In this document: piece after piece, positions 11,449 through 64,000 of the stretch
Position numbering within the stretch: position 1 is the first letter of the stretch
Layout: every line of letters begins with the position of its first letter
Source: Haliotis cracherodii
Taxonomy: Eukaryota
Length of the DNA: 64,000 nucleotides
Reading direction: 5' to 3'
Assembly: GCF_022045235.1 (NCBI RefSeq)
Contig: NW_027266300.1
Coordinates: 310,001-374,000 of the forward strand
Notes under the pieces: model-generated
Databases searched by the model: none
The model's input: the letters and a program-made list of their open reading frames with translations, nothing else
Told to the model about the DNA's origin: nothing
Position numbers and translations under genes: made by a program

Positions 11449-12183
11449 TACTCACACGCAAAAGAAACGCAAGTGGTTTTAAGCAAATAGGTAACAAACA
11501 CGGAACCATAAATTGATACGAGTTTTAACATGCAGTGAAACCTGAAGGTGTTATCAATATTTTTGGTTGTATTTTGGAAGCCCCTGAGTAAAGACGCAAC
11601 ATAAAAAACGAATCGCCAAAACGCACCATTTCAATGTATATGTGGGTATCATGCGCCCATTTCTCGCGAAATCGATAATGCACGAACTGTCACGAACTAT
11701 AGTGGGTATAAAACTGTAGCCGATTCTTGGGCCTACCACTCCTTGGTCAACAATGCCACGCCTAACTCAAATTCAGAGAAACCAGGCTATCGGACGTTTG
11801 GAAGCTGGAGAGTCCAACCAAGATGTTGCCCGTCATTTCAACGTTAACATAACCACAATTTACCGTCTCCTGCATCGATACAATGCTACACAGACCACAG
11901 ATGAGCTTCCTCGGAGCGGTCGGCCTAGGGTCAACATACCTCAACAAGATCGGCAGATTACCCGTCAACACCAGCGACATCCGTTTCTAACTGCAAGTGA
12001 AAGTGCTCGACAGACCATAGGAACACATAATCGACACATTAGCGGGGACACTATGATCCGATGTCTCCATTCCAACAACCTCAGATGTAGCCGACCAGCA
12101 CGCCGTCCTGTTCTACACGGCACGACTTCAGTGGGCACAGGGTCATCGCAATTGGCGTCATCGTGAGTGGAGGCGTGTGAGTA
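11449..12183 (+). mobile_element. Internally deleted Tc1-like element in pPolB
   Basis: Ends TACTCACACGC and GCGTGTGAGTA with TA TSD (11447-11448, 12184-12185). The N-terminal transposase ORF starts at 11753 (MPRLTQIQRNQAIGRL...SGRPRV) and has no DDE domain. Confidence 0.9.
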
Positions 12184-16377: not shown

Positions 16378-16502
16378 CAGTGTCAATCTAATGTAATTAA
16401 GATTGATCAGATAGGAGTAGAACATATCACTCTGATTGTAATATTCCAACTGCTTGACCTCTTTTCTGATTCCTACCTGGACTTCCCCTTCCCCCTGTAA
16501 GC

Positions 16503-18658: not shown

Positions 18659-18805
18659 NNNNNNNNNNNNNNNNNNNNNNNNNNNNNNNNNNNNNNNNNN
18701 NNNNNNNNNNNNNNNNNNNNNNNNNNNNNNNNNNNNNNNNNNNNNNNNNNNNNNNNNNNNNNNNNNNNNNNNNNNNNNNNNNNNNNNNNNNNNNNNNNNN
18801 NNNNN
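18659..18805. other. Assembly gap (147 N)
   Basis: Run of N followed by (GA)n and poly-G. Confidence 1.
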
Positions 18806-18859: not shown

Positions 18860-20790
18860 TATTGAATGAACACTTCATTACTCAAATCTTTTAGTTGTAC
18901 ATATAGAATGTTGTACTGCCTTAAATATAGCTTCATTTTCTGTAACAACGTGATCTGCTTTGCCGTATAACAGTAAGTGTACATCAACAGGTATGTTATG
19001 AACAATATTTTTAAGGCTGTTTAACATAATTTCACGCTGATGACTAAACAATGTACATTCCCTGAAATAATGATATGCATTTTCACATGTATTCGAACAT
19101 GTACAGTTCGGGTGATCTTTTATACCAATTCTATATAAATCATAATTCAATTGACTGCACATGTACCTCAGTATTGTGTGTAAGATATCATATTTTCTTT
19201 TTCGTATGCAAAGTACGTAGTTGACGTGGGGTGGTGCTTTTGTAACGGATTTTTAAAACAAGAACTCGTAGAATTTCGATCTGATAACGGAATAGAGTTC
19301 CACAATCGGATAGACGATGGGTAAAAGGATTCACACGAATGTCTTAGTCTTGTGAGAGGAACACTGATGTTTTCAGAGTTTCTGAGACTGTATGAGTTTT
19401 TTGCAGCAACGGTTTTGGGTAGAATATATGTTAGATAGGAAGAGGCCATGTAATGATTAATTTTAAAGAAAAGACAAAGCTTACGTTTCTTTCTACGCTC
19501 AACTAAGGGTTCCCAACCGGTTTCGTAATATAATGAATGCCTGGGGGCATATTTAGGTAGACCAGTTACAATGATTTCAGCTTCTAATTGTAATTGTTCT
19601 AATTTCTCACTTCGTCCTTCGGTGCAACCATCCCTAACCTCACATGCGTGGGATCTTATGAACATTTTATATATATTGTTCATAGTATTTCTGTGAAGTA
19701 GATGTTTGAGTTTTCTGATTGAGTAAATCATCTTGGAAGTTGTTTTAATTATGGTATCTATATGACAAGACCATTTGCCACTGGCTTCAAGTATAACACC
19801 CAAATTCTTATGACAGAGCTGATTTCCTTTCCGTTGAAATATAGTTTTAGACCTCCATTGTTGTCTTTGCGAGAGAATAGAAGAACCGATTTAGTCTTTT
19901 CGGGATTGTAAGTTATTAGCCAAAGTTTCGCCCATTCACTTAAGATTGCTAAATTTGTGCTTAAGGAACGTTCCAGTACACTGTTATCATTGGATATGAC
20001 ATGCCAATCGATGTATCGTCGGTAAACAGCCTTGTCATACAGTCTAATGTATCAGCAATGTCATTTACATAAACAATAAAGAGTATAGGACCAAGCACGG
20101 ACCCCTGTGGCACGCCAGCCTTCATGTATCTTGGTTTGGATATTTCCCCATTCACAAATACGCCTTGGCTACGATAACTTATGTAACTGGTAATCCATTT
20201 TAACAAATAGCCCTTTATACCATACCTCTCTCATTTAAACACATCCCCACTGTGCCATACACGATCAAAGGCTTTTGATACATCACAGAATACAAAACAA
20301 TAGTTTTCTTTGTTATCTAACGCTGTACAATTTTGGTGGTAAAGTTCTATTAGTTGATGGGCAGTTGAGTGACCAGCCTGAAACCCAGATTGGTACTTAT
20401 ACAACAATTTGTTCTCATGAAAATAATTATATAAATGTTTGAACACAAATCTCTCAAACAATTTTCCTAAACAGCTAATAAGTGATATCGGTCTATAATT
20501 AGAAACGATAGTGTGATCACCTTTCTTAAATAATGGCACAACATTTGCTTTTTTCCACACTGATGGAAATATACTTGATTGTAGTGACATATTGAACAGT
20601 AAACACAATGCTTCGCTAATAGCATATACAGTTTTCTTTAATAATTTACAAATTTTGTCCGGTCCGGAGGCTTTGTTTGTATTATGTCTTCAATTTCCTT
20701 TTTAGATATGATTATGTTGTTCATCTCTGTCTCTGTACGAAATGTGAAGTCGGGCATAGTTGTTCTTGTATCATAGACATCATGTTTCTG
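18860..20790 (-). mobile_element. Degraded CR1/L2-group LINE fragment
   Basis: NYRPISL, QSGF, FCDVSKAFDRVWH, GVPQGSVLGP, LFTDDT and a C-terminal CTC...HYFREC. Contains frameshifts. Confidence 0.9.
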
Positions 20791-37208: not shown

Positions 37209-40200
37209 ATGTCGCAAGGCGAGGAGCAGACGACACCCGTACAGGGTTTAACAAGGAAATTATTTCAGTGTGTGGATTTTATTCAGGGCTATTTTGTAGA
37301 CGCTGCCCTGTTTTGTTTCTTTCTCTCGCGGCACATGTCTCTGCCGTTATTCCAGGAATATGTTCAAGATCAAATCCACAAAAAACATAACCTCAACTTG
37401 ATAGACATCCAGAAAGGCATGAGTGGGAATGAGACAAGCTCCTGGCACGAGGCTCAGCAGGAAAGTGTGCTCGCAGTGTTAGGACTCCAGATTGCGGAGG
37501 GTTTACCGGCCATCATCACCGTCCTCATCCTGGGGGCTGTCAGTGACAGAACAGGCAGACGGAAGATCCTTCTGTGGCTTCCCTCGCTGGGGAGTGTTGC
37601 ACATTCTCTCATCTATGTTCTGATTCTGTACACCGGATGGAACCTGGATGGCCTGTTTATGGCGTCGGCCCTCAGGGGAATCAGTGGGAGTATGACTGCC
37701 TTCTTGGCGGGATCAACTTATTTTGCGATTAACAGTGTTAAACCAAATCAAAGAGCCTCGCGCCTTGCTATCCAGGAGTTTTTGAACGGCGGTGCATATG
37801 CTCTTGGTAATATCATGGTTGGATTCTGGGTCAAGTCCAGTGGATTTTTGCAACCATTTTGGTTCACTTTGATCTGTGGAGTGATCGCCTTCTTGATATC
37901 CTTCTTCCTGGTACAGGAGTGCCCACTCAGCGAAGCAGACCGACCGGTTCGACACAGAAGGACTGGAAATTGTTGCAAAGATTTGTTTGCACCGATGGCC
38001 AAAATATTCAACTGTTGTAAAAACCGAGGCCTGATTAAAGTCTGGATGGCCATTTTAGCTTTCCAGACGTACGCCGCAGTGCATATTGGGCAGGAGAATG
38101 TCTTAGTGTTGTATCTTAGTGGACAGCCGTATTTGTATTCCTGGCGTACGGATGTGACGGGGCCTGGGCCGTACGTGAAGATCGGCCTGTTCTTGTCCGT
38201 CATCATGGCTGTGGCAGCTGCGGCCGTAGCGCTGAGTCCACCGATAATGAGGAGGTTTCTGACAGAATCAAACATCGCCTTCATTGGATACTTCTCCAAG
38301 GCCCTGGGCACCCTCTGGATTGCTGTTGTTCATAATGAAACAATTTTATATTTTGGTAAGTCAAATAAGGTCAAGTCTGTATAGAAATTAACAATTTGCT
38401 TTCAACACTCCCTAATTCTGTAAGTTAGAAGAAGTTCTATCATTGGGATCAAATGAAGACTGAACAACTGTTGACCTGTGAAGATCCAGGGTAGAATAGG
38501 TCTTCAGCATCCCATGCTTGCCGTTAAAGGCATCTATGCTTGTCGTAAAAGGCATCTATGCTTGTCGTAAAAGGCATCTATGCTTGTCGTAAGAGGCAAC
38601 TAATAGGATCGAGTGGTCATCCCCATTGCGTGGATCGATGCTCATGATGTCAATCACTGGTCGAGACTCAATTATTTACAGACCACTGTCATATAGCTGG
38701 AATATTGCTGAGTGTGGCGATAAACAACAAAGAAACAAACAAAACTGAACAACTGTCAATCATGTATGTATCAAAACATTCATCTACCATCTCTATGGCA
38801 CAGTTGTGTTAGATACTGGCATCCCCTTGTCGTGTCAGGATCCACTGATGCTGCATCAAGTGTGTTGGGGTCCTGGTGAGCACCATACTTGTAACATGTG
38901 TACTCAACACTTTCACCAGTGCTAAAATCTAAAACTTGTGCCTTGTTTGCCTTCCTCCCCTTTTTAAAGGCAAATAAGCAGTTACAATGGTTGCAGCAAG
39001 TTTCTTTTAGGTCATTTAAACACCAAGTCATGTCTCTGCCAACTTGAGTATCTTATTATATATCAATTAATCTTACAGTTAATGATTACCCTAATCTCAG
39101 ACACTATGTCTGCTTCACACTAATGAAGTAATTACATCTTGACCTGAAGCTATGCTGAATACATGCTGAAGCTGGGCAGCAGAGAAGTCTGTGAGCTGAC
39201 ATGTTATATATGCCATGGTAAGACTGTTCCACTCAACTTACCAACGGTGAGGGATGGCTGGGTAGCGTAGTGGTTAAAGGCAGCCTTCGAAATTCACACT
39301 GCTACATATTTTGTGCTGAGGACAAGTAAAGATCTCATAACATTGTAAACATTTTGTCCTGGTTCAGGACTAGCTACAAACTCTTGACAGGTGAAAAGTG
39401 CAAACTAAGGTTTCCCCTGGTACTCTGGACTGGTCTTTCCACCCACACAACTGCTCCCACCCCTAACCCTGACTAGTCTTACCACCCACACAACTGCCCC
39501 CACCCCTAACCCTGACTAGTCTTTCCACCCACACAGCTGCCCCCACCCCTAACCCTGACTAGTCTTACCACCCACACAGCTGCCCCCACCCCTAACCCTG
39601 ACTAGTCTTACCACCCACACAGCTGCCCCCACCCCTAACCCTGACTAGTCTTACCACCCACACAGCTGCCCCCACCCCTAACCCTGACTAGTCTTACCAC
39701 CCACACAGCTGCCCCCACCCCTAACCCTGACTAGTCTTACCACCCACACAGCTGCCCCCACCCCTAACCCTGACTAGTCTTACCACCCACACAGCTGCCC
39801 CCACCCCTAACCCTGACTAGTCTTACCACCCACACAGCTGCCCCCACCCCTAACCCTGACTAGTCTTACCACCCACACAGCTGCCCCCACCCCTAACCCT
39901 GACTAGTCTTACCACCCACACAGCTGCCCCCACCCCTAACCCTGACTAGTCTTACCACCCACACAGCTGCCCCCACCCCTAACCCTGACTAGTCTTACCA
40001 CCCACACAGCTGCCCCCACCCCTAACCCTGACTAGTCTTTCCACCCACACAACTGCCCCCACCCCTAACCCTGACTAGTCTTACCACCCACACAGCTGCC
40101 CCCACCCCTAACCCTGACTAGTCTTACCACCCACACAGCTGCCCCCACCCCTAACCCTGACTAGTCTTACCACCCACACAACTGCCCCCACCCCTAACCC

Positions 40201-43200
40201 TGGTACTCTGGGGCCCGTTTCACAAAGAGATCGTAGCGCTAAGACGGTCGTAAGTCTATGTTAAAGTATAGGAATTACGGTAGTCGTACCGCTACGATCG
40301 CTTTGTGAAACAGGCCCCTGGACTGGTCCATATACCCACACAACTGCCCCCACCCCTAACCCTAACCCTGGTACTCTGGACTGGTCTTAAGACCCAAACA
40401 ACTGCCCCCACCCCTAACCCTGACTTGTCTTAACACCCACACTACTGCCCCCACCCCTAACCCTACCCTGTCCCTCCCTTGGAATTTCTATGGTTGTTAA
40501 AGTGCTCCCTTTTGAATCCCCACAAGGGGACCATGTGTGAAGCCCATTTCCATTGTCCCCGACCATTTCCGATGTCCCCTGCCATTTCCGGTGTCCCCTG
40601 CCATTTCCGGGGTGCCCTGCCATTTCCGATGTCCCCGACCATTTCCGGCGTCCCCTGCCATTTCCGATGTCCCCTGCCATTTCCGGGGTGCCCTGCCATT
40701 TCCGGTGTCCCCTGCCATTTCCGTTGTCCCCTGCCATTTCCGGTGTGCCCTGCCATTTCCGGTGTCCCCTGCCATTTCCGGTGTGCCCTGCCATTTCCGA
40801 TGTCCCCTGCCATTTCCGGGGTGCCCTGCCATTTTCCGGTGTCCCCTGCCATTTCCGTTGTCCCCTGCCATTTCCGATGTCCCCGACCATTTCCGGGGTC
40901 CCCTGCCATTTCCGGTGTCCCCTGCCATTTCCGGTGTCCCCTGATAGCAGAACTTCCCTGGATTCAGAGGAGGTCACTTGATAAGGCTATAGGCAGGGAG
41001 TAAAGCAGGCCTGACAAACACGTTGACCCACTGAACAAATCTGTTGACCCACTGGAAAAGCACAACTAAACTTAACATGATAAAAAATCAGTCAAGACAA
41101 ATAATTTTGATCCAACTGACTAATGAAAATATGAAATGTAGGTCTCCTTATTTAGCCATGTTTAGTGTACTTTTCAAACAGAATACAACATAATTTGGAA
41201 GTACATGGTTAACAGTCTGTGCCAAAATCTTTTGAGGCTACCAGCTTAAACCTGTCAATCAACATCATTCTCAGTAGATCTTAGTGTTACTGTGTCATGT
41301 GTATGGGCTGATACAAGACTACAAGATAGTTTACTGCACAGAGGCTTCGAACAAGTGGCTAAAGTCACAGACTGGCTGACACAGTAACACATGATTAACC
41401 ATGAAAATGTGTAACTTTAGTTGTCTAGCAAGTGTTCAGGGATTATTAAAACACACCTGTGACGTCATTCTATTGTTTGAGCGCTCCATTAGTTTCAGGG
41501 AATGGAGAGTTGATTGTGTTCTCCTTCAAGGCTGATCAATACTCTGCATGTTTCATGGCTCTTTAGAATGTTTTGTCAAATTGTAAAAGTAGAGATGTGT
41601 TTAAAGTAGGGGAATATCCTCATAACTCTCCACTGCGCCATTATTTTTAAATAATAGAGAGTTACTCGGACATTCCCCTCTACGTAATATTTCTGAGAGG
41701 CAGCTCCTGTTGGTGGACAGAGGAGATTTGTCAAACCCACAACAGACTCAAGGGTCTGTGCATATATTGTCAACTTGACTGTCAAGAGATAGACTTTATC
41801 AGTGTCACTTGTGGGCTGGTAATCCATCATTTTGGTCAGTGGACAGTTTCCAGTCAAGACCAGGTCAGGTAGATGTATTACGTTCACTGACGGGCATGGA
41901 AATACCTCGAGGGCTCCTTCAAGTACAGTCCATCATCATGATGCAAGGTTTCAGTAAACTCTGTGTGTGATATTCGAGTCACTGTTCAGTTAATATTGTT
42001 TGTACTCCTGACATTGGGGACCAAGATAATTTCTCAGTTTGGTTACTGTGTTGTAATCAGGGTTGTTTGTTGGTTCACATGTAGTTATCATGGTTAGATG
42101 TACACACCTAGCTGTTGGCTGGCAATGTGTAGGGTTAATGTTTACGATCATGCCGCAAGGCAGGGACTGTGGTCAGGAGGAGGACCTGGTCCTTGATACA
42201 CTGGATAAGTACATGTATTCGGGCAAGCTGACATCACAGATGGATTGTGCATCATATCTATGACTTGTGACTTTAAAAGATATGTACATTCAAAAATGGC
42301 ATTGTTCTTTGCTTAGTTCTAGAAAAGCAAACTATTACACTACATTTAAGACTACTATTATACTAGAACCTTATCTATTAAGTGTAAATTTACATAAGTT
42401 TAGAACAGCTCTTTCTCGATTCCGTTGTGGCTCACATGATCTATTTATTGAAACAGGCAGATATGAAGGTATTGCAAGAGAACACAGACCTTGTAGGATT
42501 TGTAAAACTGATTGTACTGAAGATGAATATCACTTTTTATGTGTATGTCCAGTGTATGAAGATTTAAGAGCAAAATATCTAAATAACTATTTCTACCGCA
42601 ACCCAAACGGTAACAAATTTTGTAAATTAATGACTTGTGATTGTACAGAAACTATTAGAAATCTATCAATGTTCATTTATCACGCCATGAAACTAAGAAA
42701 ATGTATGAATTTGTAACATGCCCCACACATTGTACTATAGGCCTTTGGCCTCATAAGTACCATGAATAAAGATTGATTGACTTGTGTCTCAGCTCAGGAG
42801 TGATGGGGCCTCCGCTGCCTGGGGCATGGCAGTGGTCAGCTTTCACAAATACAGAGTTACCCATGGTTACAGGTTGGGCAATTCTTTCTGCATGGAGAAA
42901 CAGGTGTTTTTGTTCTTATGGGGACAATGATGTCATTAGTCCAAACCACTGTTGGCAAGTTAGTGTTATGAATGTTAATGATACTATTTGATAATGCTTT
43001 AAACTGTCTGATTCTGTGTATATGATGAAGGGCCCTGGGCCCCGTTCCATAAAGCCATCTTAGTGCTAAGGTTATCATATGTCCCATACTTTAACACTGG
43101 CTTACGATAGTCGTAACGCTAAGATCGCTTTGTGGAAAGGTGCCCTGGGCCTGTTGAGTATTGATAATGAGACCTGTATAAGAATGCCTGCCTGAACAAA

Positions 43201-46200
43201 TGCATTGCATGAGATTCATACTGCTCGCTCTGTTGTTTGTATAAGACATTAGAGAATCTAAGTGTGATGTTACAGAGTGTGCCATGGTCCACTGGACTAT
43301 GATGTGGATCGGTGTGTGGTTACTTAAGTCAAGATAGAATCACTCAGTTCATGATACCATGATATGACAGTCAGATGAACTGACATCCTTGTGAGGACTT
43401 GATGTGGCCTACAGGTGATATGCATCAATAGATTTTGGTGAAAATCATTCACAAAGTAACAGGAAAAACTGTCATATACAAAAGATCTGGCTCTTCTTAT
43501 TAACTTTAGAATCTAGAATCGAGATCAGTGTTGATCCGTCATGTTGTCCAGTCTGGGAGACACTGGGACAGGGTATTTCTTCCTGTTGATCTGTCATGTT
43601 GTCCAGTCTTGGAGACACTGGGACAGGGTATTTCTTCCTGTTGATCTGTCATGTTGATCAGTCTTAGAGACACTGGGACAGGGTATTTCTTCCTGTTGAT
43701 CTGTCATGTTGTCCAGTCTTGGAGACACTGGGACAGGGTATTTCTTCCTGTTGATCTGTCATGTTGTCCAGTCTTGGAGACACTGGGACAGGGTATTTCT
43801 TCCTGTTGATCTGTCATGTTGATCAGTCTTAGAGACACTGGGACAGGGTATTTATTCCTGTTGATCTGTCATGTTGTCCAGTCTTGGAGACACTGGGACA
43901 GGGTATTTCTTCCTGTTGATCTGTCATGTTGTCCAGTCTTGGAGACACTGGGACAGGGTATTTCTTCCTGTTGATCTGTCATGTTGATCAGTCTTAGAGA
44001 CACTGGGACAGGGTATTTATTCCTGTTGATCTGTCATGTTGTCCAGTCTTGGAGACACTGGGACAGGGTATTTCTTCCTGTTGATCTGTCATGTTGTCCA
44101 GTCTTGGAGACACTGGGACAGGGTATTTCTTCCTGTTGATCTGTCATGTTGTCCAGTCTTGGAGACACTGGGACAGGGTATTTCTTCCTGTTGATCTGTC
44201 ATGTTGATCAGTCTTAGAGTCACTGGGACAGGGTATTTCTTCCTGTTGATCTGTCATGTTGTCCAGTCTTGGAGACACTGGGACAGGGTATTTCTTCCTG
44301 TTGATCTGTCATGTTGTCCAGTCTGGGAGACACTGGGACAGGGTATTTCTTCCTGTTGATCTGTCATGTTGTCCAGTCTTGGAGACACTGGGACAGGGTA
44401 TTTATTCCTGTTGATCTGTCATGTTGATCAGTCTTAGAGACACTGGGACAGGGTATTTCTTCCTGTTGATCTGTCATGTTGTCCAGTCTTGGAGACACAG
44501 GGACAGGGTATTTCTTCCTGTTGATCCGTCATGTTGTCCAGTCTTGGAGACACTGGGACAGGGTATTTCTTCCTGTTGATCTGTCATGTTGTCCAGTCTT
44601 GGAGACACAGGGACAGGGTATTTCTTCCTGTTGATCTGTCATGTTGTCCAGTCTTGGAGACACTGGGACAGGGTATTTCTTCCTGTTGATCTGTCATGTC
44701 CAGTCTTGGAGACACTGGGACAGGGTATTTCTTCCTGTTGATCCGTCATGTTGTCCAGTCTTGGAGACACTGGGACAGGGTATTTCTTCCTGTTGATCTG
44801 TCATGTTGTCCAGTCTTGGAGACACAGGGACAGGGTATTTCTTCCTGTTGATCTGTCATGTCCAGTCTTGGAGACACTGGGACAGGGTATTTCTTCCTGT
44901 TGATCTGTCATGTTGTCCAGTCTTGGAGACACTGGGACAGGGTATTTCTTCCTGTTGATCCGTCATGTTGTCCAGTCTGGGAGACACTGGGACAGGGTAT
45001 TTCTTCCTGTTGATCTGTCATGTTGTCCAGTCTTGGAGACACTGGGACAGGGTATTTCTTCCTGTTGATCTGTCATGTTGTCCAGTCTTGGAGACACTGG
45101 GACAGGGTATTTCTTCCTGTTGATCTGTCATGTTGATCAGTCTTGGAGACACTGGGACAGGGTATTTCTTCCTGTTGATCCGTCATGTTGTCCAGTCTGG
45201 GAGACACTGGGACAGGGTATTTCATCCTGTTGATCCGTCATGTTGTCCAATTTTGGAGGCACTGGCCTACTTATTGTCTTCAAACAATCTACAATATTTG
45301 AATGGTTATTTCAGTTTTTTAATTGTTTTTTTATTAATCTTCTATAGCTTCTTAATATTAAAATTCATAACAATGAATGTGGTTTGCAAGCCTCATATAT
45401 GAGAGGAAATGTTTCATCAATCTTTTTCAACATTTAATGCCTCATGTGACTATTTTAGTCTGAACTGGTATTTACGTCAAGAATTAACTGAAACAGGTTC
45501 TGCAGGCCTCAGAAGCAGCTTAGCATTACTGAAATGCTCCCTGTTGAACAATTTCCATCCTGCTTGTTTGATTAAGCTGTAACCGTTGAAGGAAAATAAC
45601 AAAGCATATTTACACCATAGGTGGCCATGTTGAATGTCCATGCTATATTCCAGTTTGAGTATTTCCCTTTATAAAGCGTACCATGCTTGCCTTGCCACGC
45701 ACGTTTGCCGGCTGCGCAGGGGAGCCTGCCCTGTACGCCACGGAATCGGAATTGTCGGCTCACCGCTCAGGTGGCAGTTGGAAAGTTGCAGGACCAGAAC
45801 ATATATGTACTGTATCAGTTGGACGTGTTAACTATTGATCTTTGATATTTGGTAAAAAAAAGTATTTTGTGTATGTTCCAGAATTTAAATAGGATGTCAC
45901 GATCGTGATGATGCAGAAATGATCTCGCCCAGAGAAAAGTGCCGTATTTGTTGTAATATAGGGTGATGCTGTCTTATATCAAGGATGGATTAATGGATAA
46001 ACATAAGAAATATTACTGATGAGACGTGGTCATCCATCAAGGCAAAACTTGGCCACTTCAAGCATGTGCCATTGTTTCAAGTCTTTGTGTCTGCAGATGA
46101 ACATCGGTTTACATTTACAGCTTTAGGGAGTTGATATATTATAGTGGAGATAATGCAGGGTTTGCCTGGCCTTTTAAAACTTGGGTCAACATGGCCCCCA

Positions 46201-49200
46201 AGCTGTGTCACAGGGAGTCATAGGTCTTTGTATGGGTCACTCTTACAACATATTTATTGATGTCCTTCTTTTATAATAAATTACCGATGATTGTGGACTC
46301 GGACCTGGTTTGCCCCTGTTATATTTCTAGGTTTGTCAGCTCCATACCCATGGGTTTTACCAAAGTAGTAAACATTTGAGACCTGCATCACTTCTGGTTT
46401 TCCTTCTACATTAAGCTGACACGCCGTGATAAAACTGTAAGACTGTTAAAACGGCATACCAACTCACTCACACCACAAATTATTTTTTTAATCTAAAACA
46501 TATTCTCTTCTCCCCCTAATCCTGCAGCTTCTATATAATATCATAACCCTTCACATGTGACTCGCCACACTCAGTACACAGTTCAGTACACAATAAATTA
46601 TGTTGTTATTGATTGAACCACAAATCATGATCTGAAACAAAAATAAATTCAATTGACTTGCAAACATCAACACAATATCAGGGGTTGGCTTGTTGTCTCG
46701 CACTTTGAGGTATTATGATTACGATTTGCTGTTTATTGGAATCCACGACGTTTCGGTTTAACATCAAAACTTGAAATGTGGTGACGTATATTTTCTTGAT
46801 TGGCTTGATGTGGGAGTTCCCTGTGATGAGTTCCAAGTGATGTAGCAAACACAAGCACCCCTGTAGGCAAGTAATCCAACGTAGTTCTGATTGGCTGCCA
46901 CTGATAGCTTGGTTAGAAGGCTGTTTGTATATAGACGTTGGCTTTTCCACATTTAAACAAAGCTGATATTGGTAGTAATATCGTCACATAATTTGTCAGT
47001 TTAATTTTAATGTTCTGACAATGTAGTGCAATTAAATTATTGATTTGGCAGACTGAACGATCTGCATTACAACTGAGGCAATGGGGAAATGATGTTGCAG
47101 GTAACTTGAATGTGGCAGGTAACTTGAATGTGGCAGGTAACTTGAATGTGGCAGGTAACTTGAATGTGCCCCAAGTTGCTTCTGCTGCTGGTGACAGCAG
47201 TCAGTTGGGGGAATTAGGCTTTTGTTTCCGTGTCTGACACATACATATTGCAGAGAGTTTAATGATTAAACTTTGCCGAGGTGATAGCTTGTGCTTAATG
47301 TGCCCCAGGCATGGAAGCAATGGGCAGGGATGTTTGCCAGAATCAATTAATTTAAATCAGGTGACCATTGATCAGGGAGCAGAAGGACAAGACAGTGAAC
47401 CTGATGTCGTGGACACACATCTCTCAGTTTCCCTTCACTCAAGTCAAGCTGCAGTGTTCCTGCAACCTTTTGAAACTGCCAGTCCTGGTGGACTGGCAAC
47501 TCTAAAAATTGTCAAGTCCCCCTAATTTTTGTCAAATAACAAAATGTATGAAAAGTACCTGGTTTTAATTCTTTCAACATCATGTTCAATGCAATACATC
47601 ATCTCTGAAGAAACTTAGTTAGATCTACATGTCATTCACACAAACTTCAGTCACAATTTTCTCTGTTTTTGGTGAATATTTCGAGACTAAGTCGCTTTAC
47701 TACGAAACAAAGCGAAATGTTAGTCAAGGGGAAGCCATGATGGTAACCATGGTAACAGACAAGCTGAATTCATTCAAAAAAAATACTTACAGGTATGTTC
47801 CTGATGTTTTCTTGAACAAAAAAGATTTATAAGGTATTGTCCGGTCCACAGGGACTGACAGTCACCATGGTCACATGAATTACTTGTCCAAGCCTAATAC
47901 TACCGCTAAAAGACTGGTAATTACCAGTAAACGGGAACACGACTGCTTCACTGCATTTTCTTGTCATGTTAAAAGATTTTTTCCTTATTTTCCAGCCATT
48001 CTGCTGTTGGCGTTTGAACTTCTACCATTCCCAATGATGAGGTCCATCGTGTCAAGAGGAATTTCCCCATCGGAACAAGGTGAGAGTCTCCCCTACATGA
48101 ACAGACAGTAAAATACTTATATAATGAACACACTTGCAACGAACTGATGGATACAACAAACTTAATTTTTGGTGCCGGCCATTTGTGATGAAATAAAGTT
48201 TAGATAAGCAAAACAGACTTCTTTCTTAATTGTCATCCCCCCGACTCACCTGTCTGTCACACCCGTCAGCTGGGCAGGTGACTGGGGTCAAGTCATCCCC
48301 CCGACTCACCTTTCTGTCACAGCTGGGCAGGTCACAGGGGTCAAGTCATCTCCCCGACTCACCTGTCTGTCACACCTGTCAGCTGGGCAGGTCACTGGGG
48401 TCAAGTCATCCCCCCGACTCACCTGTCTGTGACACCTGTCAGCTGGCCAGATCACAGGGGTCAAGTCATCCCACCGGCTCACCTGTCTGTCACACCTGTC
48501 GTCTGGGCAGATCACTGGGGTCAAGTCATCCCCCCGACTCACCTGTCTGTGACACCTGTCAGCTGGGCAGATCACTGGGGTCAAGTCATCCCCCCGACTC
48601 ACCTGTCTGTCACACCTGTCAGCTGGGCAGATCACTGGGGTCAAGTCATCCCACCGGCTCACCTGTCTGTGACACCTGTCGTCTGGGCAGATCACTGGGG
48701 TCAAGTCATCCCCCCGACTCACCTGTCTGTCACACCTGTCGTCTGGGCAGATCACTGGGGTCAAGTCATCCCCCCGGCTCACCTGTCTGTGACACCTGTC
48801 AGCTGAGCAGATCACTGGGGTCAAGTCATCCCCCGACTCACCTGTCTGTTACAGTCTGTTCATCAATAGTCGACTGACCACCTCCATGGTCAAGTGAGAG
48901 AGGAAGGTCTGGGGTTTCATCCCCGGCCGGGTCGTACCAAAAGACATTAAAAGATGGTACTTGATGTTACCCTGCCTGGCTCGGCATTAAGGGGATAAAA
49001 CAAGGACTGTTCGGTTGGAGTATACTGTGTATGAGTGGGGTATTCATGTTAAACACACACATGCATGCATATCGCTGTATAAGTGCGATAATCTTGGACA
49101 CAAAGTTAAACCCCATTTCAACTCACCTCAATAGTCGACTCTCAGCACAAAATGACATTTGACTTGACTGTGTGTTGCCTGCTAGATAATCTGTGACAGC

Positions 49201-52200
49201 TGTAACAGGAAGTTAGCAGTTGTGCAACATGTGCCGTCACGCCTCAAGGCAGGACTGCACTTCCCACTCTACAATGACTATCTGCTCTGCCCGCCCCTCC
49301 CTCCCTGGCTTACAGTGGGGGCATGATGACATTGTCACACATGACTGCACTTCCCTCTCTACAATGACTATCTGCTCTGCCCGCCCCTCCCTCCCCAGCT
49401 TACAGTGGGGGCATGATGACATTGTCACACATGACTGCACTTCCCTCTCTACAATGACTATCTGCTCTGCCCGCCCCTCCCTCCCCAGCTTACAGTGGGG
49501 GCATGATGACATTGTCACACAGGTCCTCTGATTCAGGACAGCGGGACAACGTGACAACGTGAGGCAGGTACAGGACAAGAATGGGATTGCTTCGTCATGG
49601 GCCCCTCCTTGACACAGACTTGTTATTGTCAATCATGTCAATTGTCGAGGACAGAAAGCAACTGTTTTTGTTGTTTCTTAAATGTCCACAAAGCAATCTA
49701 TGCATAAATGTGTCACAACTCACCAGTGGCGGAAAATATGTTGATTAGTTTGGGGACTTTCTTGCACATTTGGGGGCACGTGTGGCCCAGTCGTCTAAGG
49801 CGCCGCGATTTGCTGTGCAGAGTTGCGTCCCCTGGACACGCCAGAAACCTATGATTGTGGGTTCGAATCCCGGTTCACCCCAATTATGTTTCTAGGTTTG
49901 TCAGCATCATACCCGTGCTCGTGGGTTTCACCGAAGTGGCAAACGTCTGAGACCTGCATCACTTCGGGCTTTCCTCCCACATTAAGCTGACACGCCGTGA
50001 TATAACTGGAATACTGTTAAAAGCGGCGTTAAAACCCTTTTCACTCACTCACTCACCCACTCTTGCACATTTGCTCGATGTTACTTCTCCGATATTTATC
50101 GAAAATTGATCGATACTTAGTTAGAGATTATCAATCTCTGTGATCTATATCGATAGCCAGCACTACTGTTTAGTGTTTAGGGAGCGGGTATAGGTGGGAT
50201 TCATGACAATAGTCATTTCCTGTTGTCTTGCGATGTCATGCACAGCGAGAGTTTCACAGAAACCCAACATTACAGCGTGTCTCTGACACACTATGGACTG
50301 TATAATAATTAATGCAGGGAAATGTAAGTAGAAGTTCATCATGCTTAGTCAATATATCTTAAACAGCAGCTGATTGGTGATTAAAACAAAGGGCCTCTTT
50401 CACAGTGCCAGGTTTTCACACAACAACAGCTTCCCGGAGAGCGAGATGCAACCAGATGCAGAAGTTTAAGCTACTGTTCATTTAGTTTTAGAGGATTTAC
50501 AGGGATTGGTATGAAACAGGTTTTCAAGTTAAAATACAAGTGGGTAAAAACAATGTGAATACCTAAAAATTGTGGCTTTCCAATCAAAATCAAACCCCTG
50601 CGTAAAACACCCAATAACCAAAAGATTATCATGAGTTTAGCACATTGCTCCAACTTTAGGGTATAACTCCAATACAGCTTAAAACAGAATTCAGCCAACT
50701 CCCTTTTCATGCTCACTCATTTGGTCCGTTTATTCTTCATGATTTTATTTCTTGTTATTACCATGATTACAGGTTAACATTTGCTCTTGTTGCAGGGTCG
50801 CTGTTTGCTGTGATGCATTGTGGGGAGAGTATAATTTACTTCCTGGCTCCCTTCACCTTCACGGCAATCTACGCTTCTTCGCTGCACTACTTTGGTGGCT
50901 TCGTCTTCATCGTGTCTATCATCCTGCTGTGTCTGCCGACAGGATTCACAATGTAAGTACATCATCCTGCTGTGTCTGCCGACAGGATTCACGATGTAAG
51001 TACATCATCTTGGTGTGTCTGCCAACGGGGTTCACAATGTAAGTACATCATCTTGGTGTGTCCGCCGACAGGATTCACAATGTAAGTACATCATCTTGGT
51101 GTGTCCGCCGACAGGATTCACGATGTAAGTACATCATCTTGGTGTGTCTGCCAACGGGGTTCACAGTGTAAGTACATCATCTTGGTGTGTCTGCCAACGG
51201 GGTTCCCAGTGTAAGTACATCATCTTGGTGTGTCTGCCAACGGGGTTCTCAGTGTAAGTACATCATCTTACTGTGTCTGCCAACGGGGTTCACGATGTAA
51301 GTACATCATCTTGGTGTGTCTGCTGACGGGGTTCACAATGTAAGTACATCATCTTCCTGTGTCCGCTGACGGGGTTCACAGTGTAAGTACATCATCTTAA
51401 TGTGTCTGCCGACGGGGTTCACAATGTAAGTACATCATCTTGGTGTGTCTGCTGACGGGGTTCACAGTGTAAGTACATCATCTTACTGTGTCTGCTGACG
51501 GGGTTCACAGTGTAAGTACATCATCTTGGTGTGTCTGCCGACGGGATTCACAATGTAAGTACATCATCTTGGTGTGTCTGCCGACGGGGTTCACAGTGTA
51601 AGTACATCATCTTACTGTGTCTGCTGACGGGGTTCACAGTGTAAGTACATCATCTTGGTGTGTCTGCCGACGGGATTCACAATGTAAGTACATCATCTTG
51701 GTGTGTCTGCCGACGGGGTTCACAGTGTAAGTACATCATCTTGGTGTGTCTGCCGATGGGGTTCACGATGTAAGTACATCATCTTGGTGTGTCCGCTGAC
51801 GGGGTTCACTATGTAAATACATCATCTTGGTGTGTCTGCCGACGGGGTTCACAGTGTAAGTACATCATCTTGGTGTGTCCGCTGACGGGGTTCACAATGT
51901 AAATACATCATCTTGGTGTGTCCGCCGACGGGGTTCACAGTGTAAGTACATCATCTTGGTGTGTCCGCTGTTGGGGTTCACAATGTAAGTACATCATCTT
52001 ACTGTGTCTGCCGACGGGGTTCACAGTGTAAGTACATCATCTTGGTGTGTCTGCCAACGGGGTTCACGATGTAAGTACATCATCTTGGTGTGTCTGCTGT
52101 TGGGGTTCACAACGTAAGTATATCATCTTGGTGTGTCTGCCGACGGGGTTCACAATGTAAGTACATCATCTTGGTGTGTCTGCTGTTGGGGTTCACAACG

Positions 52201-53270
52201 TAAGTATATCATCTTGGTGTGTCTGCCGACGGGGTTCACAGTGTAAGTACATCATCTTGGTGTGTCTGCCGACAGGATTCACGATGTAAGTTTATCATCT
52301 TGGTGTGTCTGCCGACAGGATTCACGATGTAAGTTTATCATCTTGGTGTGTCTGCCGACAGGATTCATGATGTAAGTTTATCATCCTGCTGTGTCTGCCG
52401 ATGGAGTTAACGATATAAGTACATCATCTTCCTGTGTCTGCCGATGGGGTTCACAATGTAAGTACATCATCTTGGTGTGTCTGCCGACGGGGTTCACAGT
52501 GTAAGTACATCATCTTGGTGTGTCTGCCGACGGGGTTCACAGTGTAAGTACATCATCTTGGTGTGTCTGCCGACGGGGTTCACAGTGTAAGTACATCATC
52601 TTGGTGTGTCTGCCGAAGGGGTTCACAGTGTAAGTACATCACTCTGTGGCAGGTAGTTCACACCAGGGGGACACGGGTGGCCCAGCAGTTCACTGTGCAG
52701 AGTTGCATCCCTTGGGCATGCCAGGAACCTATGATCACTGGTTGTAATTGTACCAGTTTGCCATGATTATGTCTGTATGTTTGTTAACACCATAAACATG
52801 CTCATCTGATTGACATATTTTCCAGTGTTAAGCTCACTCACTCGCTCATTCACAGCATGGGAACAGTTTTGCAGACGTTTCGGCTTGTTATCTTTGTTTA
52901 TGCAGGTTTCCAATGTTTCAAAACAGTAGTGAGTTAGCGGGGAACTTCTGTGGTATCTTGTTTTACAAATCACCTTGCTCCAGTGTGTTGGCATACAAAA
53001 TGTGAAGTTGTTTCGTTATTTCCTAACTGAGCCGATGCTGTGAGATATATTAGCAACTCACTACTTGTTGATGACTTGTTGAGGATGTATTTGTGTGTTT
53101 ATAGAGCCCTTCGTTATCTGGAGAGCAGGGAGCCCCAGGGATACGAGCCCATGGATGGAGCCGATCTGCAGCCGGAGGAGGAAGGACCATCTGCAGCACC
53201 CAGCGAATCGGAGACCGACAGACTGGCACAGGAGCCAATCAGCTTCATTCAGCTTAGTCAGGATGCATGA
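37209..53270 (+). CDS. SLC46-family (PCFT/SLC46A3-like) MFS transporter; exons 37209-38355, 47996-48079, 50796-50952, 53105-53270 (517 aa)
   Basis: MFS motif A GAVSDRTGRRKIL, multiple TM segments, MMRSIVSRGISPSEQG/SLFA and a hydrophilic tail. GT-AG junctions in phases 1, 1 and 2 give 1554 nt including the stop. Confidence 0.9.
38472..38743 (+). mobile_element. SINE-like element, (AAAC)n tail family
   Basis: 13-bp TSD ACTGAACAACTGT at 38459-38471 and 38744-38756, with an internal 23-bp triplication. Confidence 0.85.
39412..40470. repeat. 43-bp C-rich minisatellite containing CCCTAACCC
   Basis: Unit CCCCACCCCTAACCCTGACTAGTCTTACCACCCACACAGCTGC. Confidence 0.95.
40211..40317. mobile_element. 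107-bp MITE (PIF/Harbinger-like), CTG TSD
   Basis: TIRs GGGCCCGTTTCACAAAG and CTTTGTGAAACAGGCCC with CTG on both sides. The empty site TACTCTGGACTGG occurs at 39421 and 40372. Confidence 0.88.
40543..40943. repeat. 19-bp minisatellite (CCCCTGCCATTTCCGGTGT) arising inside a SINE remnant
   Basis: Preceded by the SINE body ATGTGTGAAGCCCATTTC. Confidence 0.9.
42270..42777 (+). mobile_element. LINE 3'-end fragment (zinc-finger region)
   Basis: LSRFRCGSHDLFIETGRY...CRICK...EDEYHFLCVC, an AATAAA(GATT)n tail, and a 9-bp TSD TGACTTGTG at 42261-42269 and 42778-42786. Confidence 0.9.
43038..43144. mobile_element. 107-bp MITE, CTG TSD
   Basis: Same family and length as 40211-40317. Confidence 0.8.
43528..45250. 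repeat. 55-bp minisatellite (about 31 copies)
   Basis: Unit TGTTGATCTGTCATGTTGTCCAGTCTTGGAGACACTGGGACAGGGTATTTCTTCC. Confidence 0.96.
48232..48850. repeat. 60-bp minisatellite
   Basis: Unit TCATCCCCCCGACTCACCTGTCTGTCACACCTGTCAGCTGGGCAGATCACTGGGGTCAAG. Confidence 0.95.
48876..49127 (+). mobile_element. tRNA-derived SINE (same family as 2820-3141)
   Basis: 13-bp TSD TCAATAGTCGACT at 48863-48875 and 49128-49140. Central region ACCAAAAGACATTAAAAGATGGTAC. Confidence 0.88.
49253..49521. repeat. 90-bp unit repeated three times
   Basis: Three near-identical tandem copies. Confidence 0.93.
49773..50060 (+). mobile_element. Full-length tRNA-derived SINE with (ACTC)n tail
   Basis: A-box-like TGGCCCAGTCGTCTAAGG, B-box GGTTCGAATCC and 13-bp TSD TCTTGCACATTTG. 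Related copies at 57167-57434, about 46290-46470 and about 52667-52745. Confidence 0.9.
50918..52640. repeat. 43-bp minisatellite spanning the exon 3 donor of the SLC46-like gene (about 40 copies)
   Basis: Unit ATCATCTTGGTGTGTCTGCCGACGGGGTTCACAATGTAAGTAC. The first copy is the exon end plus GTAAGTAC. Confidence 0.95.
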
Positions 53271-53884
53271 TCCAACCACTGCACCCGAGTGTCCCATCGA
53301 TAGTCATGGAATTTGCACCTTTACCCAGTGATTGCCAACAGAGGAGAGCTAGTCACCCAGATAGTGTATGTTGGACATCAGGAACCAAGGTTCAGTGTAC
53401 CTATAATCAGAAACCCGAGCTTGTCTCGGCTGACGTTATCAGGGGAAGATCAGCTGTAGTTTACACTGCATCGTATTTCTGTTGCTCAAAAGTGATAGTT
53501 GAAGTTGCCTGTTCTAGTGTCAACTCATTTGGAAGATGTTTTCTGCATATTTATCCACAGTGCTTGTGTTAGTTCCACTGTTATATATCTTGTTTAAGAA
53601 CAATCACAAGAGCTTTGTAGTGTGATCTGTGGCTACATCGGTTACTTGGCTCAGACTCGGAGAAGTACAAAAGCAAGAAGCAGCTGCTCAGTAGGAGGCT
53701 GTGTGGATCTTACGTTGAGAATTGTGCATGACGTTTAATTGTGTGTGACAGGTGCTTGGTGTGTTCACACATCTGCATTGTTGCTGTTGTTACTATGTTG
53801 CATGTCATGTGTGTCTTCAGGATATGATGTGTGTTACTCTCCAGCCATAGTGTGTGTAGTGCATGTCTTCAGGTTATAGTATAA

Positions 53885-54876: not shown

Positions 54877-55898
54877 AGTCTGTGTAGTACAGGTGAGACG
54901 TCTATAAGCCAGTCTGTGTAGTGCAGGTGAGACTTATATAAGCCAGTCTGTGTAGTGCAGGTGAGACTTATATAAGCCAGTCTGTGTAGTACAGGTGAGA
55001 CGTCTATAAGCCAGTCTGTGTAGTACAGGTGAGACTTATATAAGCCAGTCTGTGTAGTACAGGTGAGACTTATATAAGCCAGTCTGTGTAGTGCAGGTGA
55101 GACGTCTATAAGCCAGTCTGTGTAGTACAGGTGAGACTTATATAAGCCAGTCTGTGTAGTACAGGTGAGACGTCTATAAGCCAGTCTGTGTAGTGCAGGT
55201 GAGACTTATATAAGCCAGTCTGTGTAGTACAGGTGAGACTTATATAAGCCAGTCTGTGTAGTGCAGGTGAGACTTATATAAGCCAGTCTGTGTAGTGCAG
55301 GTGAGACTTATATAAGCCAGTCTGTGTAGTACAGGTGAGACTTATATAAGCCAGTCTGTGTAGTACAGGTGAGACTTATATAAGCCAGTCTGTGTAGTAC
55401 AGGTGAGACTTATATAAGCCAGTCTGTGTAGTACAGGTGAGACTTATATAAGCCAGTCTGTGTAGTACAGGTGAGACGTCTATAAGCCAGTCTGTGTAGT
55501 ACAGGTGAGACTTATATAAGCCAGTCTGTGTAGTACAGGTGAGACGTCTATAAGCCAGTCTGTGTAGTGCAGGTGAGACTTATATAAGCCAGTCTGTGTA
55601 GTACAGGTGAGACTTATATAAGCCAGTCTGTGTAGTGCAGGTGAGACTTATATAAGCCAGTCTGTGTAGTACAGGTGAGACTTATATAAGCCAGTCTGTG
55701 TAGTACAGGTGAGACTTATATAAGCCAGTCTGTGTAGTGCAGGTGAGACTTATATAAGCCAGTCTGTGTAGTACAGGTGAGACTTATATAAGCCAGTCTG
55801 TGTAGTGCAGGTGAGACGTCTATAAGCCAGTCTGTGTAGTACAGGTGAGACTTATATAAGCCAGTATGTGTAGTGCAGGTGAGACTTATATAAGCCAG
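54877..55898. repeat. 34-bp minisatellite (AGTCTGTGTAGTACAGGTGAGACTTATATAAGCC), about 30 copies
   Basis: Tandem array. Confidence 0.96.
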
Positions 55899-60484: not shown

Positions 60485-63248
60485 TCATTGGACGGAGCAG
60501 ACCTTCCCCTGTTGGTGCTTTACCTGATCTGGTAAGTTTGTCCGCCGGTTGTGTGATAGTTTCTCCATCACCTGAAAACAGGACCAGGGATGACATCTGC
60601 CCAGCCGAGAGTAGCACACCTTACACTGCCTCTGGTGATGATGCCGTTTGGTAACCCCTGCGTGTATTTCATTTACCCTGTCGACTTCCCGACCAGTACC
60701 CATGGCAACTGAAGACGCTATGTATTTGGCTTTAACAAACTGGGACCCGTACCACAAAGCTATCGTAGAGCCACGACTTTCGTAAGCTTATATTAAAGAA
60801 TGGGCGTTACGATCATCTTAGCGCTAAGATCGCTTTGTGGAACGGGACCCTGAACAGTTAAGAACCCATACTTTTCTCAACAATAGCCAATATTGCATCT
60901 GATATAACACACTGCACTTTCGACGATGCTAATTGTTGTTTTTCGTGCCTAAATCGAAGCTCTGAAAGCGAATGGATCCAGGATATTTATCCCACGATAA
61001 AAAGTAGATATAACACACTGAATATTCGAGGAGAACCATTGTTCTTTCCCGGAGAGACATCGGTTGGGGTGTCATCCCTAGCAAACGCAGTCGTTCCTGG
61101 TACTGGAAAAGTCAGGGGAAAGATGTCCTGATTTATTTCCTAAAGCTGGTCTGTGTAGAACAGGACCCTTGCCCCCAGGTCGTAAGAGCAGACAGAAATG
61201 GGAATTGGTTGGTTATTGTGTAGTCTTGCGAATTGTGTATCTTCGCGCCCAAAACCACTGGTTTGTCCGAGTGTTCACAGATGGCCGTCACACAACTGGA
61301 CTAGTGATGAAGAAAGTGGGTATCAACAATCCCCTCACGATCCAACAACCGCCCTAAACAATTCCCAATAACATTAGACGTAAGGCAATGGCATCGTCCG
61401 TAGCCAACACATATAATAATACCCAGTTTAAAACAATATTGCTCGAACAGGTGCTTGGCTATAATCAGTTTAACGCGAACAATGAGGCCCTAGGGGTGTT
61501 CAAAACCTGCATAAAATGACATGTTCAATGCAGTGTTTTACAATAGCATCAGGAGATCGCCAAAGTCACACCAATAAAGTAGCATGCAGTCGCCTTTACT
61601 GGCACTCGTATATAATAGACCCATACACTATTGTCCCTGGCCATTGCAGTATATTGATTCAATATCGCTAACACCAATAAATATGTTATTGTTCTGAAAT
61701 AACCAAGGTTCCCATGGTTACAATGTCTCTATCAGCTGTAGGCGATCGTAACAAATGTTTTCGGACTGTTTCGACTGGTGGCTATCGATCCATGCACGTG
61801 TATGCGCTGACCCCGGGGCCAGTAAGCCCAGGGGAGGGGGAGGGGGTCGCTGTGGATGGGCGAGGTTACATATGATGATGTCACAACGCCTGTTATTCCT
61901 GTCGTCCCTACGGTCGTTCAGTTCAGTTATTCTAGTTTAATCTGGTGAATCGCCATTACAGAGCAATCTGGCGAAGACAAATAATAATGAACGGCTGGCA
62001 ACATCTCTCGTCGTGACAGAGACAGCTTACATTGATTTACTCTGGTCAGATTTCGTATCTGTACACATGGCACCGCATTCACCTCCGATATATGATGTGG
62101 GGGCTTACGTAAACTCCGGTTGACGTTTAACACTCGGAAACAATATGCATACACTCGTCTCCTTTCGTGCCTTTCCGTGCACACTGGGACTTCCCCCGGA
62201 ATGACACGGGTGGTTTGTTTGGCTACGCGAACATTGTTTAGTCATTTTCAAATAGAATCGGATTCATATTGTTCATCGTGGTTGCGGCGAATGTCTTGAT
62301 TTACATTAAAGTTTATGAATAAACAGTTTTGAGTTGTCCAGAGAGACACCATTCACAATTGAACAGAATTTTGTACTTGTTTGTGTATCGCCTAGTATCT
62401 CTGTGGCGACACTCTGTGATTCTGTGAATGCTGGTGTATGTCAAAAACCCAGCAGACCAGTTTCCCTTTGGGGATCGGGGGACACAATGGCTGGTACTAG
62501 GGATATAAGTCGGACGGGAAACCGCTCTTAAACACCTACTTCAGCCGCCATAGCGCTGACGAAACCTCCAAATCCCCCACTCACAATGCAGACTTTCCAG
62601 TTCTGCTGCCAGCGCCATGCAAGCCCTCTGATGTGCATCGATCGATTGTGTTTTAATATGGTGAAAACATGCCTGCCTGTCAAGTCCAGTCTGTGTTGAT
62701 GCTCGAGTTGTAATGGCCGTCAGGAACTCCGTACATCAACCCCATGGACAAACTCCACCGCGCTGCGTGCCTGACCCACGCGACATGCGGGACATGCGGG
62801 ACACCAGGAGCCTGTTCACTGCTGGAGGAGTATTGTATAGACACCAGACACCAGGTCCGCCATGACACACCCAGAGGGTATCTCTTCATTCAGAACTTTA
62901 ATAATGGATCAACCTTAACGATTTAGATTTAACAGACCGGAGGTGGAGAAATTGCCCTATTATATGATTCCCCCTTTTTTTTCAAAATTCCAAACAATGA
63001 ACGCAACTTTGACAACGGCAACTTTGATTTGATTGAGAAAAGCGCAAACATTCACCTTAAGATGTTAAGGTTGCGTTTCTATGACAACACATACAGGATT
63101 CGCCATTACTTACAGTGAGCGCCTCCAGGAACTCGATGGTTCCACTCCCGTCTGTGTCCATCTCCTTGAGGATCTCTTCGACCTTGCCGGGGGTGAACAC
63201 GGTCACGCTCACTATCAGCACTCGGTCCAGCTCATCCACATCAATTAC
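60485..63248 (-). CDS. 3' part of an EF-hand Ca2+-binding protein with a C-terminal CaaX motif; exons 63248-63114 and 60571-60485 (5' exons beyond the window)
   Basis: Exon VIDVDELDRVL...EEILKEMDTDGSGTIEFLEALT (canonical EF loop DTDGSGTIEFLE) is bounded by GCAG and GTAAGT. A phase-0 join to TTTCAG|VMEKLSHNRRTNLPDQVKHQQGKVCSVQ* completes the frame. Confidence 0.78.
60743..60849. mobile_element. 107-bp MITE, CTG TSD
   Basis: GGACCCGTACCACAAAGC...GCTTTGTGGAACGGGACC, same length as the other two copies. Confidence 0.82.
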
Positions 63249-64000
63249 CTGCAACCCAGAATACCATCAGAACCCCTCTCACTGCAACCCAAGAACACCA
63301 TCAGAACCCCTCTCACTACAACCCCAGAACACCATCAGAACCCCTCTCACTGCAACCCCAGAACACCATCAGAACCCCTCTCACTGCAGCACAGGACACC
63401 ATCAGAACCCCTCTCACTGCAACCCAGAGCACCATCAGAACCCCTCTCACTGCAACCCAGGACACCATCAGACCCAGAACACCATCAGAACCCCTCTCAC
63501 TGCAAATCCAAACACCATCACTACAACCCCACCCCCTGCAACCCCAAAACACCATCAGAACCCCTCTCACTGCAGCACAGGACACCATCAGAACCCCTCT
63601 CACTGCAGCACAGGACACCATCAGAACCCCTCTCACTGCAACCCCAGAGCACCATCAGAACCCTTCTCACTGCAACCCCAGAGCACCATCAGAACCCCTC
63701 TCACTGCAGCACAGGACACCATCAGAACCCCTCTCACTACAACCCCAGAACACCATCAGAACCCCTCTCACTGCAACCCCAGATCACCATCAGACCTAGA
63801 ACACCATCAGAACCCCTCTCACTGCAACCCCAAACACCATCACTACAACCCCACCCCCTACAACCCCAGAACACCATCAGAACCCCTCTCACTGCAACCC
63901 AGAACACCACCAGGACCCCTCTCACTGCAACCCCAGATCACCATCAGAACCCCTCTCACTGCAACCCCAAACACCATCACTACAACCCCACCCCCTGCAA
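63249..64000. repeat. About 33-bp minisatellite abutting the EF-hand exon acceptor
   Basis: Unit CTGCAACCCCAGAACACCATCAGAACCCCTCTCA; runs to the window end. Confidence 0.93.

Follow-up and report, generated by a model that had tools for sequence, protein, structure and literature searches.

A tandem array of 5' splice sites at exon 3 of an SLC46-like transporter gene in Haliotis cracherodii, most likely a neutral minisatellite

Minisatellites whose first unit spans a 5' splice site (donor) have been described in the human F7, IFI6, CBS, LMNB2 and PDGFA genes, where the first site or the first three sites are reported to be used (PMC1557585). The array described here is a further case of this known exon-intron-boundary class, of the F7/CBS type and akin to the 'mirages' of amphioxus. 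It has a 43-bp unit, begins within exon 3 of an SLC46-like transporter gene of the abalone Haliotis cracherodii, and lies in a 64,000-nt stretch of RefSeq assembly GCF_022045235.1 (contig NW_027266300.1, positions 310,001 to 374,000, forward strand), which is called the window below and numbered from its first letter. Its units run head to tail, the authentic boundary lies in unit 1, the donor is reiterated downstream, the first site dominates in assembled RNA contigs, and neighbouring units are locally homogenised. The array is real and most likely neutral. A literature search that left most subscription journals outside turned up no report of this locus or of any junction-spanning abalone array; H. 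discus hannai has a 27-bp intronic minisatellite that is polymorphic, but the accessible text of its report (PMC6905558) does not describe it as junction-spanning.

The nearest build is that of CBS intron 13, which carries a 31-bp variable number tandem repeat (VNTR) written c.1444_1467+7(16_21) (PMC2630376). As in abalone, the CBS unit consists mostly of exon end with a few intron bases (24 + 7 nt, against 35 + 8 nt in abalone), and its length is constant, with substitutions inside the units. The CBS array has 16-21 copies whereas the abalone array has 40, and two pseudo-sites are reportedly used in CBS (PMC1557585) whereas none was seen in use in abalone. In F7 intron 7, with a 37-bp VNTR, only the most upstream donor is reported to be used (Borensztajn et al., 2006; PMC1557585); in F7 minigenes, downstream sites with consensus values up to 91 gave no competition, and only a perfect consensus competed. 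F7 resembles the abalone locus in that unit 1 spans the boundary, the donor is reiterated downstream and the first donor is used, but its unit has 4 exonic and 33 intronic nt, it has 5-9 copies, and it was tested in minigenes, whereas the abalone locus is known from assembled contigs. The IFI6 (6-16), LMNB2 and PDGFA minisatellites are also junction-spanning, with 10-25 copies. According to the same report, the authentic donor alone is used in LMNB2 and PDGFA, as in the abalone locus, while IFI6 differs in using its two nearest pseudo-sites (PMC1557585).

Two further systems bear on the comparison. The 25-bp VNTR of human ABCA7 intron 18 has a donor in every unit, and use of donor 2 would bring a premature stop, as in abalone. 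Retention of one unit is reported at ~2%, unchanged with VNTR size (De Roeck et al., 2018; PMC5954066), and skipping of the following exon reportedly goes up 3.2- to 4.1-fold with longer alleles (PMC5954066). The ABCA7 unit, however, begins at the GT and has no exonic part, and its length effect falls on an internal downstream exon, which has no abalone counterpart. In amphioxus, boundary duplications in Adh3 and globin genes, the 'mirages', are reported to be harmless to splicing (PMC3087553). These share with the abalone array an invertebrate host, a minisatellite-like structure, preserved splice signals and concerted evolution; they differ in that length and somatic instability have been demonstrated there, and in that the abalone host is a gastropod.

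The array and its host gene

The features of the locus are as follows, by position in the window; all are on the forward strand.

37209..38355 (+): first coding exon of the SLC46/PCFT-like gene (ATG at 37209); 100% identity to the protein P0001, MFS_1 domain, GT donor next to it
47996..48079 (+): coding exon 2, 84 nt; forms the loose end before exon 3 in the contigs of RNA runs X7 and X8
50796..50952 (+): coding exon 3, 157 nt, the last 35 nt being the exonic part of unit 1; RNA contigs match 50794-50952 with 0 differences
50918..52641 (+): 43-bp minisatellite, 40 full units plus 4 nt; 1689 nt of it lie in intron 3, which is 2152 nt long
50918..50921 (+): ATCA, the first four letters of the array (microhomology)
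50953..50960 (+): authentic 5' splice site, the intron part of unit 1; the exon 4 start follows 50952 in X7 and X8, in agreement with the RefSeq protein
50954..50956 (+): in-frame TAA for any transcript that reads past donor 1 (read-through gives ATG TAA)
50996..51003 (+): pseudo-donor 2; its junction would fall 39 nt past the stop, and its use was not observed
52638..52641 (+): ATCA, the last four letters of the array (microhomology); unique intron sequence comes next
53105..53270 (+): last coding exon, with the cytosolic tail; acceptor AG at 53103-53104, from translation and RNA contigs
53142..53153 (+): codons of Y476-E-P-M479; downstream-donor products would lack this Yxx-hydrophobic motif

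Tandem Repeats Finder reports 50918-52641 as a tandem array of period 43 with 40.1 copies, 91% matches and 0% indels. Cut in register, the unit consists of 35 nt like the end of exon 3 and 8 nt like the start of the intron; unit 1 is 50918-50952, the final 35 nt of the 157-nt exon, plus GTAAGTAC. A first-pass annotation made from the sequence had described just such an exon-end-plus-intron unit amplified about 40 times, and this description is confirmed. It had also stated that about 40 near-perfect donors follow the true one, which is right in its order of number, but the exact count is 39 downstream copies, 38 of them with GT (GT is kept in 39 of all 40 units and replaced by AT in unit 35). 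'Near-perfect' suits the intron half of the site, with GTAAGT in 37 of 40 units, but not the exon half: the exonic triplets before the donors are AAT, AGT, GAT, AAC or TAT, and none of the 40 has G at -1. Scored against an 11-nt donor consensus, the true donor has 8 matches, and among the 39 copies 17 score 8, 20 score 7 and 2 score 9, so that the decoys are equal to the true site and not clearly stronger.

The array is not an assembly artefact, as distinct units, DNA-run words and a contig from a second organism all indicate. Thirty of the 40 units are distinct in sequence. Six DNA runs from two studies contain 0.71-0.82 of the sampled words of 50300-53600 (word content, unaligned), and the largest share attributable to non-array sequence is 0.47-0.61. 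In the second organism (organism B, run X10), one contig leads from exon 3 through donor 1 into a second unit and is accompanied by many array-like contigs, so the array is common to a related organism; summed contig depth there reaches 3522, against 39 on exon 3, which suggests many copies and is not itself a copy number. The raw DNA run X19, with 17 reads on 50300-51003, 2 of them on units 1-2 and 0 on exon 3, is uninformative for copy number. The tested 14-mers of the unit had no match outside the array within the window, which argues against chance; a dispersed-repeat or mobile origin of the unit is rejected, within the window, by the same lack of outside matches. An exact 28-nt unit pattern had no match in metagenome contigs, a result weakly informative for animal sequence.

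The four coding exons, when joined (37209-38355, 47996-48079, 50796-50952 and 53105-53270), reproduce all 517 residues of P0001 exactly. This protein stands under four RefSeq accessions of H. cracherodii (XP_071078524-27) as proton-coupled folate transporter-like, and because of the exact match unit 1 must contain the authentic donor and 53105 the correct acceptor, as the first-pass annotation had placed it (53104/53105). Its assignment of the gene to an SLC46-like family also holds: the product contains an MFS_1 domain (E 3e-24), and database relatives are named PCFT-like or SLC46A3-like, or otherwise hypothetical. The gene encodes an SLC46 transporter (PCFT/SLC46A3-like MFS). The proteins of H. 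rufescens, H. rubra and H. asinina have a full tail like that of H. cracherodii, and the read-through stop forms the protein end in none of the five cluster members, the fifth of which (P0063) is an unspliced first exon and uninformative on intron 3. At the 5' end of the gene, the mRNA contigs hold ~170-200 nt before the ATG and only 71 nt lie behind a likely acceptor at 37137, which points to an untranslated exon upstream of 37138.

Donor choice and its consequences

Four of 21 candidate sequencing runs (X7, X8, X10 and X19) were compared with 50300-51003, which holds exon 3 and units 1-2. A contig of 3351 nt in X7 (depth 68.8) and one of 3396 nt in X8 (depth 32) match 50794-50952 with 0 differences, are preceded by the end of exon 2 and followed by the start of exon 4, and are unbroken across donor 1 and the acceptor. 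Donor 1 is thus joined to the 53105 acceptor in the main contig of both RNA runs, and the mature mRNA made with this donor codes for the complete transporter of 517 aa. No downstream donor was seen in use, as neither main contig branches at donor 1 or at the acceptor of exon 4. The first-pass annotation had proposed to look for junctions from repeat donors to 53105; in both runs only the donor 1 junction appeared, at the level of contigs, where minor use of others is possible.

The array is also represented in short contigs, 63-73 nt long among those shown. Those over 50967 and 50970 number six in X7 (summed depth 83.6 at 50967) and one in X8 (6.19); all have T at 50967 and G at 50970, the letters of internal units, and none of these X7 and X8 contigs has the window's unit-2 letters. 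The deepest one shown (21.4) has 7 differences, as for the commonest internal pair of units, though four other pairs also give 7; the 31-mers of the commonest pair occur 8.9 times on average, which corresponds to a depth of ~2.4x per copy. Spread over the 39 copies, array RNA amounts to ~3% of mRNA depth in X7 and ~0.5% in X8, a level to be expected if unspliced RNA or carried-over DNA is present. Depth is zero over the unique end of intron 2 in X7 and X8 alike.

Several other properties of intron 3 were considered. Selection preserving the decoy donors is not supported by column variation, with 2 variant letters in the 6 columns +1 to +6 and 24 in the 37 elsewhere, which is not clearly different (no statistical test). 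RNA structure hiding the decoys finds no support, the fold over units 1-5 being unusual in no way (z -0.56). The array contains 23 CAG words, with 6-9 pyrimidines among the 15 upstream letters against 9 and 11 at the true acceptors; there is no sign that they serve as micro-exons or recursive sites. Neither AATAAA nor ATTAAA occurs within intron 3.

The products of downstream donors can be predicted by arithmetic. The first-pass annotation had read the sequence past donor 1 as ATG TAA with the stop at 50954-50956, and this is correct. All donors after the first would give an identical 463-aa product ending at that TAA, without the final residues of the last hydrophobic (membrane) segment and without the tail. 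Measured from the stop, the exon junction would be 39 nt downstream with donor 2, 82 nt with donor 3 and 1673 nt with donor 40. A junction closer than 50-55 nt past the stop usually spares a transcript from junction-dependent decay. By this rule, taken here to hold in molluscs as well, the product of donor 2 might escape decay while those of donors 3-40 would not. The earlier statement that downstream donors yield a decay target or a tail-less transporter is therefore sound as to the 463-aa product, but donor 2, at 39 nt, need not feed decay.

The lost tail carries the YxxM motif, of which Y476 and M479 are invariant in 30 of 30 aligned relatives, these being full-length sequences picked from 59 hits plus 8 cluster members. 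Deletion of a like C-terminal motif in human SLC46A3 is reported to place the protein at the plasma membrane, human SLC46A3 being the one protein for which a lysosomal sorting role of the motif is demonstrated in that report (PMC9896951). Donor 2 could on these grounds yield one stable 463-aa isoform without YxxM, at the plasma membrane and not the lysosome, in a share set by array alleles. We regard this as very doubtful; if true, it would be a repeat-born switch of transporter location.

Origin of the array and other repeats of the window

The ATCA at either edge of the array suggests how it may have arisen. We infer slippage, or unequal exchange, that involved a pair of ATCA words 43 nt from each other, the first exonic and the second barely inside the intron; the founding event would have been followed by expansion and local homogenisation of units. 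Adjacent units have 3.85 differences against an average of 4.65 (permutation p 0.0016), and the block of units 14-16 partly recurs at 17-19. All 40 units have the Cys codon shared by H. cracherodii and H. rufescens, at a position where Phe stands in H. rubra and H. asinina; either the array arose after the Cys/Phe change, or exon and array have been homogenised since. In 17 of 40 units a G is present that would encode Val, the residue of H. rubra and H. asinina, which may be an ancestral letter still kept or a transition that has recurred. The exon differs from the array consensus at 4 positions, 3 of them synonymous, and exon-type marker letters reappear in units 2, 4, 5 and 32-35.

Tandem repeats abound in the window, where 17 arrays of period 18-60 cover 16,527 of 64,000 bases (26%), so that an array touching a junction is unsurprising. 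Further young arrays (92-98% matches) lie in introns 1 and 2 of the SLC46 gene (39428-40202, 43529-45265, 48232-48853 and 49253-49521), two of the four having donor-like words on the antisense strand. Behind the gene, a 34-bp x 30 array at 54877-55898 has CAG/GTGAG in every unit on the strand of the gene. The two mRNA contigs, if colinear, end at ~54899 and ~54906, inside its first unit, so that the 3' untranslated region seems to enter this pseudo-donor array; an ATTAAA stands at ~54805. On the minus strand, a 34-bp array at 63249-64000 stops precisely at the probable acceptor of an EF-hand exon (63114-63248; Pfam EF-hand) and contains the acceptor word GGTTGCAG 13 times; it is likely an acceptor-side counterpart, with a unit that would hold no exonic bases. 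GTRAG is present in at least 40% of units on one strand in 7 of the 16 other arrays, against ~2 expected (p 0.003, base shuffle), and 22 of 1280 like motifs, mostly TG/CA-rich, reach at least 7 arrays as well; this is a weak hint, from one window and a post hoc test, that abalone minisatellites favour donor-like words.

The remaining features lie farther from the gene. An LPMO_10 (lytic polysaccharide monooxygenase) gene and its array region occupy 24160-24637, 24652-26506 and 26977-27483 on the minus strand. Its last exon encodes a linker rich in Thr and Ser and a small Cys-rich end. Immediately ahead of the acceptor of that exon is a 29-bp x 64 array, half of whose units contain GTAAG, and an interspersed repeat at ~26507-26775 seems to have severed the last unit. 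Three Tc1/mariner-type transposase copies (HTH_Tnp_Tc3_2, DDE_3) are found at 7663-8733, 11720-12163 and 28529-29491, the first with a 357-aa open frame, and broken RVT_1 fragments of LINE-like elements at 15024-16382 and 19964-20689 on the minus strand. An assembly gap of 147 N at 18659-18805 is far from the 43-bp array.

Competing explanations and significance

The explanation that best fits these data, with a probability of about 0.78, is that the array is an ordinary minisatellite of the intron, with a first unit that spans the exon 3 donor by chance and with copies that are tolerated passengers without selected function. The spliceosome would define exon 3 from its acceptor and then take the first usable 5' site, so that the downstream copies, about as strong as the true donor, would stay silent or leak a few percent at most; the silence of the decoys would on this analysis be due to first-site selection. 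A number of points weigh against this explanation. The first-site scanning rule was demonstrated in mammalian cells and not in molluscs, and IFI6 and CBS each reportedly use two pseudo-sites beside the true one (PMC1557585). In X7 the array has ~2x depth per copy, against a depth of 0 over the unique 3' end of intron 2 (50636-50779), which would be compatible with some excess of intron-3 RNA. Assembled contigs lose rare forms, which leaves room for a leak of a few percent, and contig depth measures expression poorly; the comparison spans units 1-2, with 8 of 19 X7 pieces shown and 78 loose ends unseen. As unit 2 of the second organism has T at 50967, the absence of unit-2 letters from the array contigs may reflect polymorphism. 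The RNA label of the runs is a guess, although the spliced contigs prove mRNA content.

A small constitutive leak, independent of copy number, in which donors 2-3 serve a few percent of transcripts on the pattern of IFI6, CBS and ABCA7, is rather unlikely. Donors from the third onward would then feed decay, and donor 2 might give a little tail-less protein. Such a leak is suggested by those precedents, by pseudo-donors that match the consensus as well as the true donor does, and by array-derived RNA contigs in both runs, but the main contigs are unbranched at donor 1 and at the exon 4 acceptor, and the array contigs look internal. We think it very unlikely that array length or unit type acts as a heritable dial on mRNA level or isoform ratio, as the first-pass annotation had suggested for copy number, be it by way of donors further down, slower excision of intron 3 or some influence on adjacent exons. 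The greater exon skipping with longer ABCA7 alleles is a precedent, the rough ratio of array to mRNA depth is ~6-fold apart between X7 and X8, and the tail that would be lost carries the invariant YxxM. However, the repeat donor of ABCA7 was used to the same extent whatever the VNTR size, under first-site selection it does not matter how many distant copies there are, and the next exon here is the last one, which makes skipping of the ABCA7 type impossible; as for the 6-fold figure, it rests on contig depth, a poor measure of expression, uncorrected for the copy number of each animal. It is extremely improbable that the array matters at the level of DNA, through conversion or unequal crossover that moves letters between array and exon end, or as a source of a backup for a mutated donor 1. 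The exon-type letters in units 2, 4, 5 and 32-35, the 3 synonymous changes among 4 and the Val-encoding G shared with H. rubra and H. asinina would fit such exchange. Yet 3 of 4 is not significant, since 14 of the 35 transitions that could occur are synonymous; a single transition suffices for the Val letter, which may have arisen repeatedly; the outgroup species are compared at the protein level; and a backup donor would be useless unless the stop were lost too.

The importance of the locus would rise much only if donor 2 were used or array length altered expression, neither of which was seen. As it stands, the array adds a gastropod to the known list of junction-spanning minisatellites, and it suggests that first-donor selection tolerates 38 intact decoys in a mollusc. 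Outside mammals, the locus offers a ready natural experiment on the scanning model, and it may serve as a marker in an endangered species.

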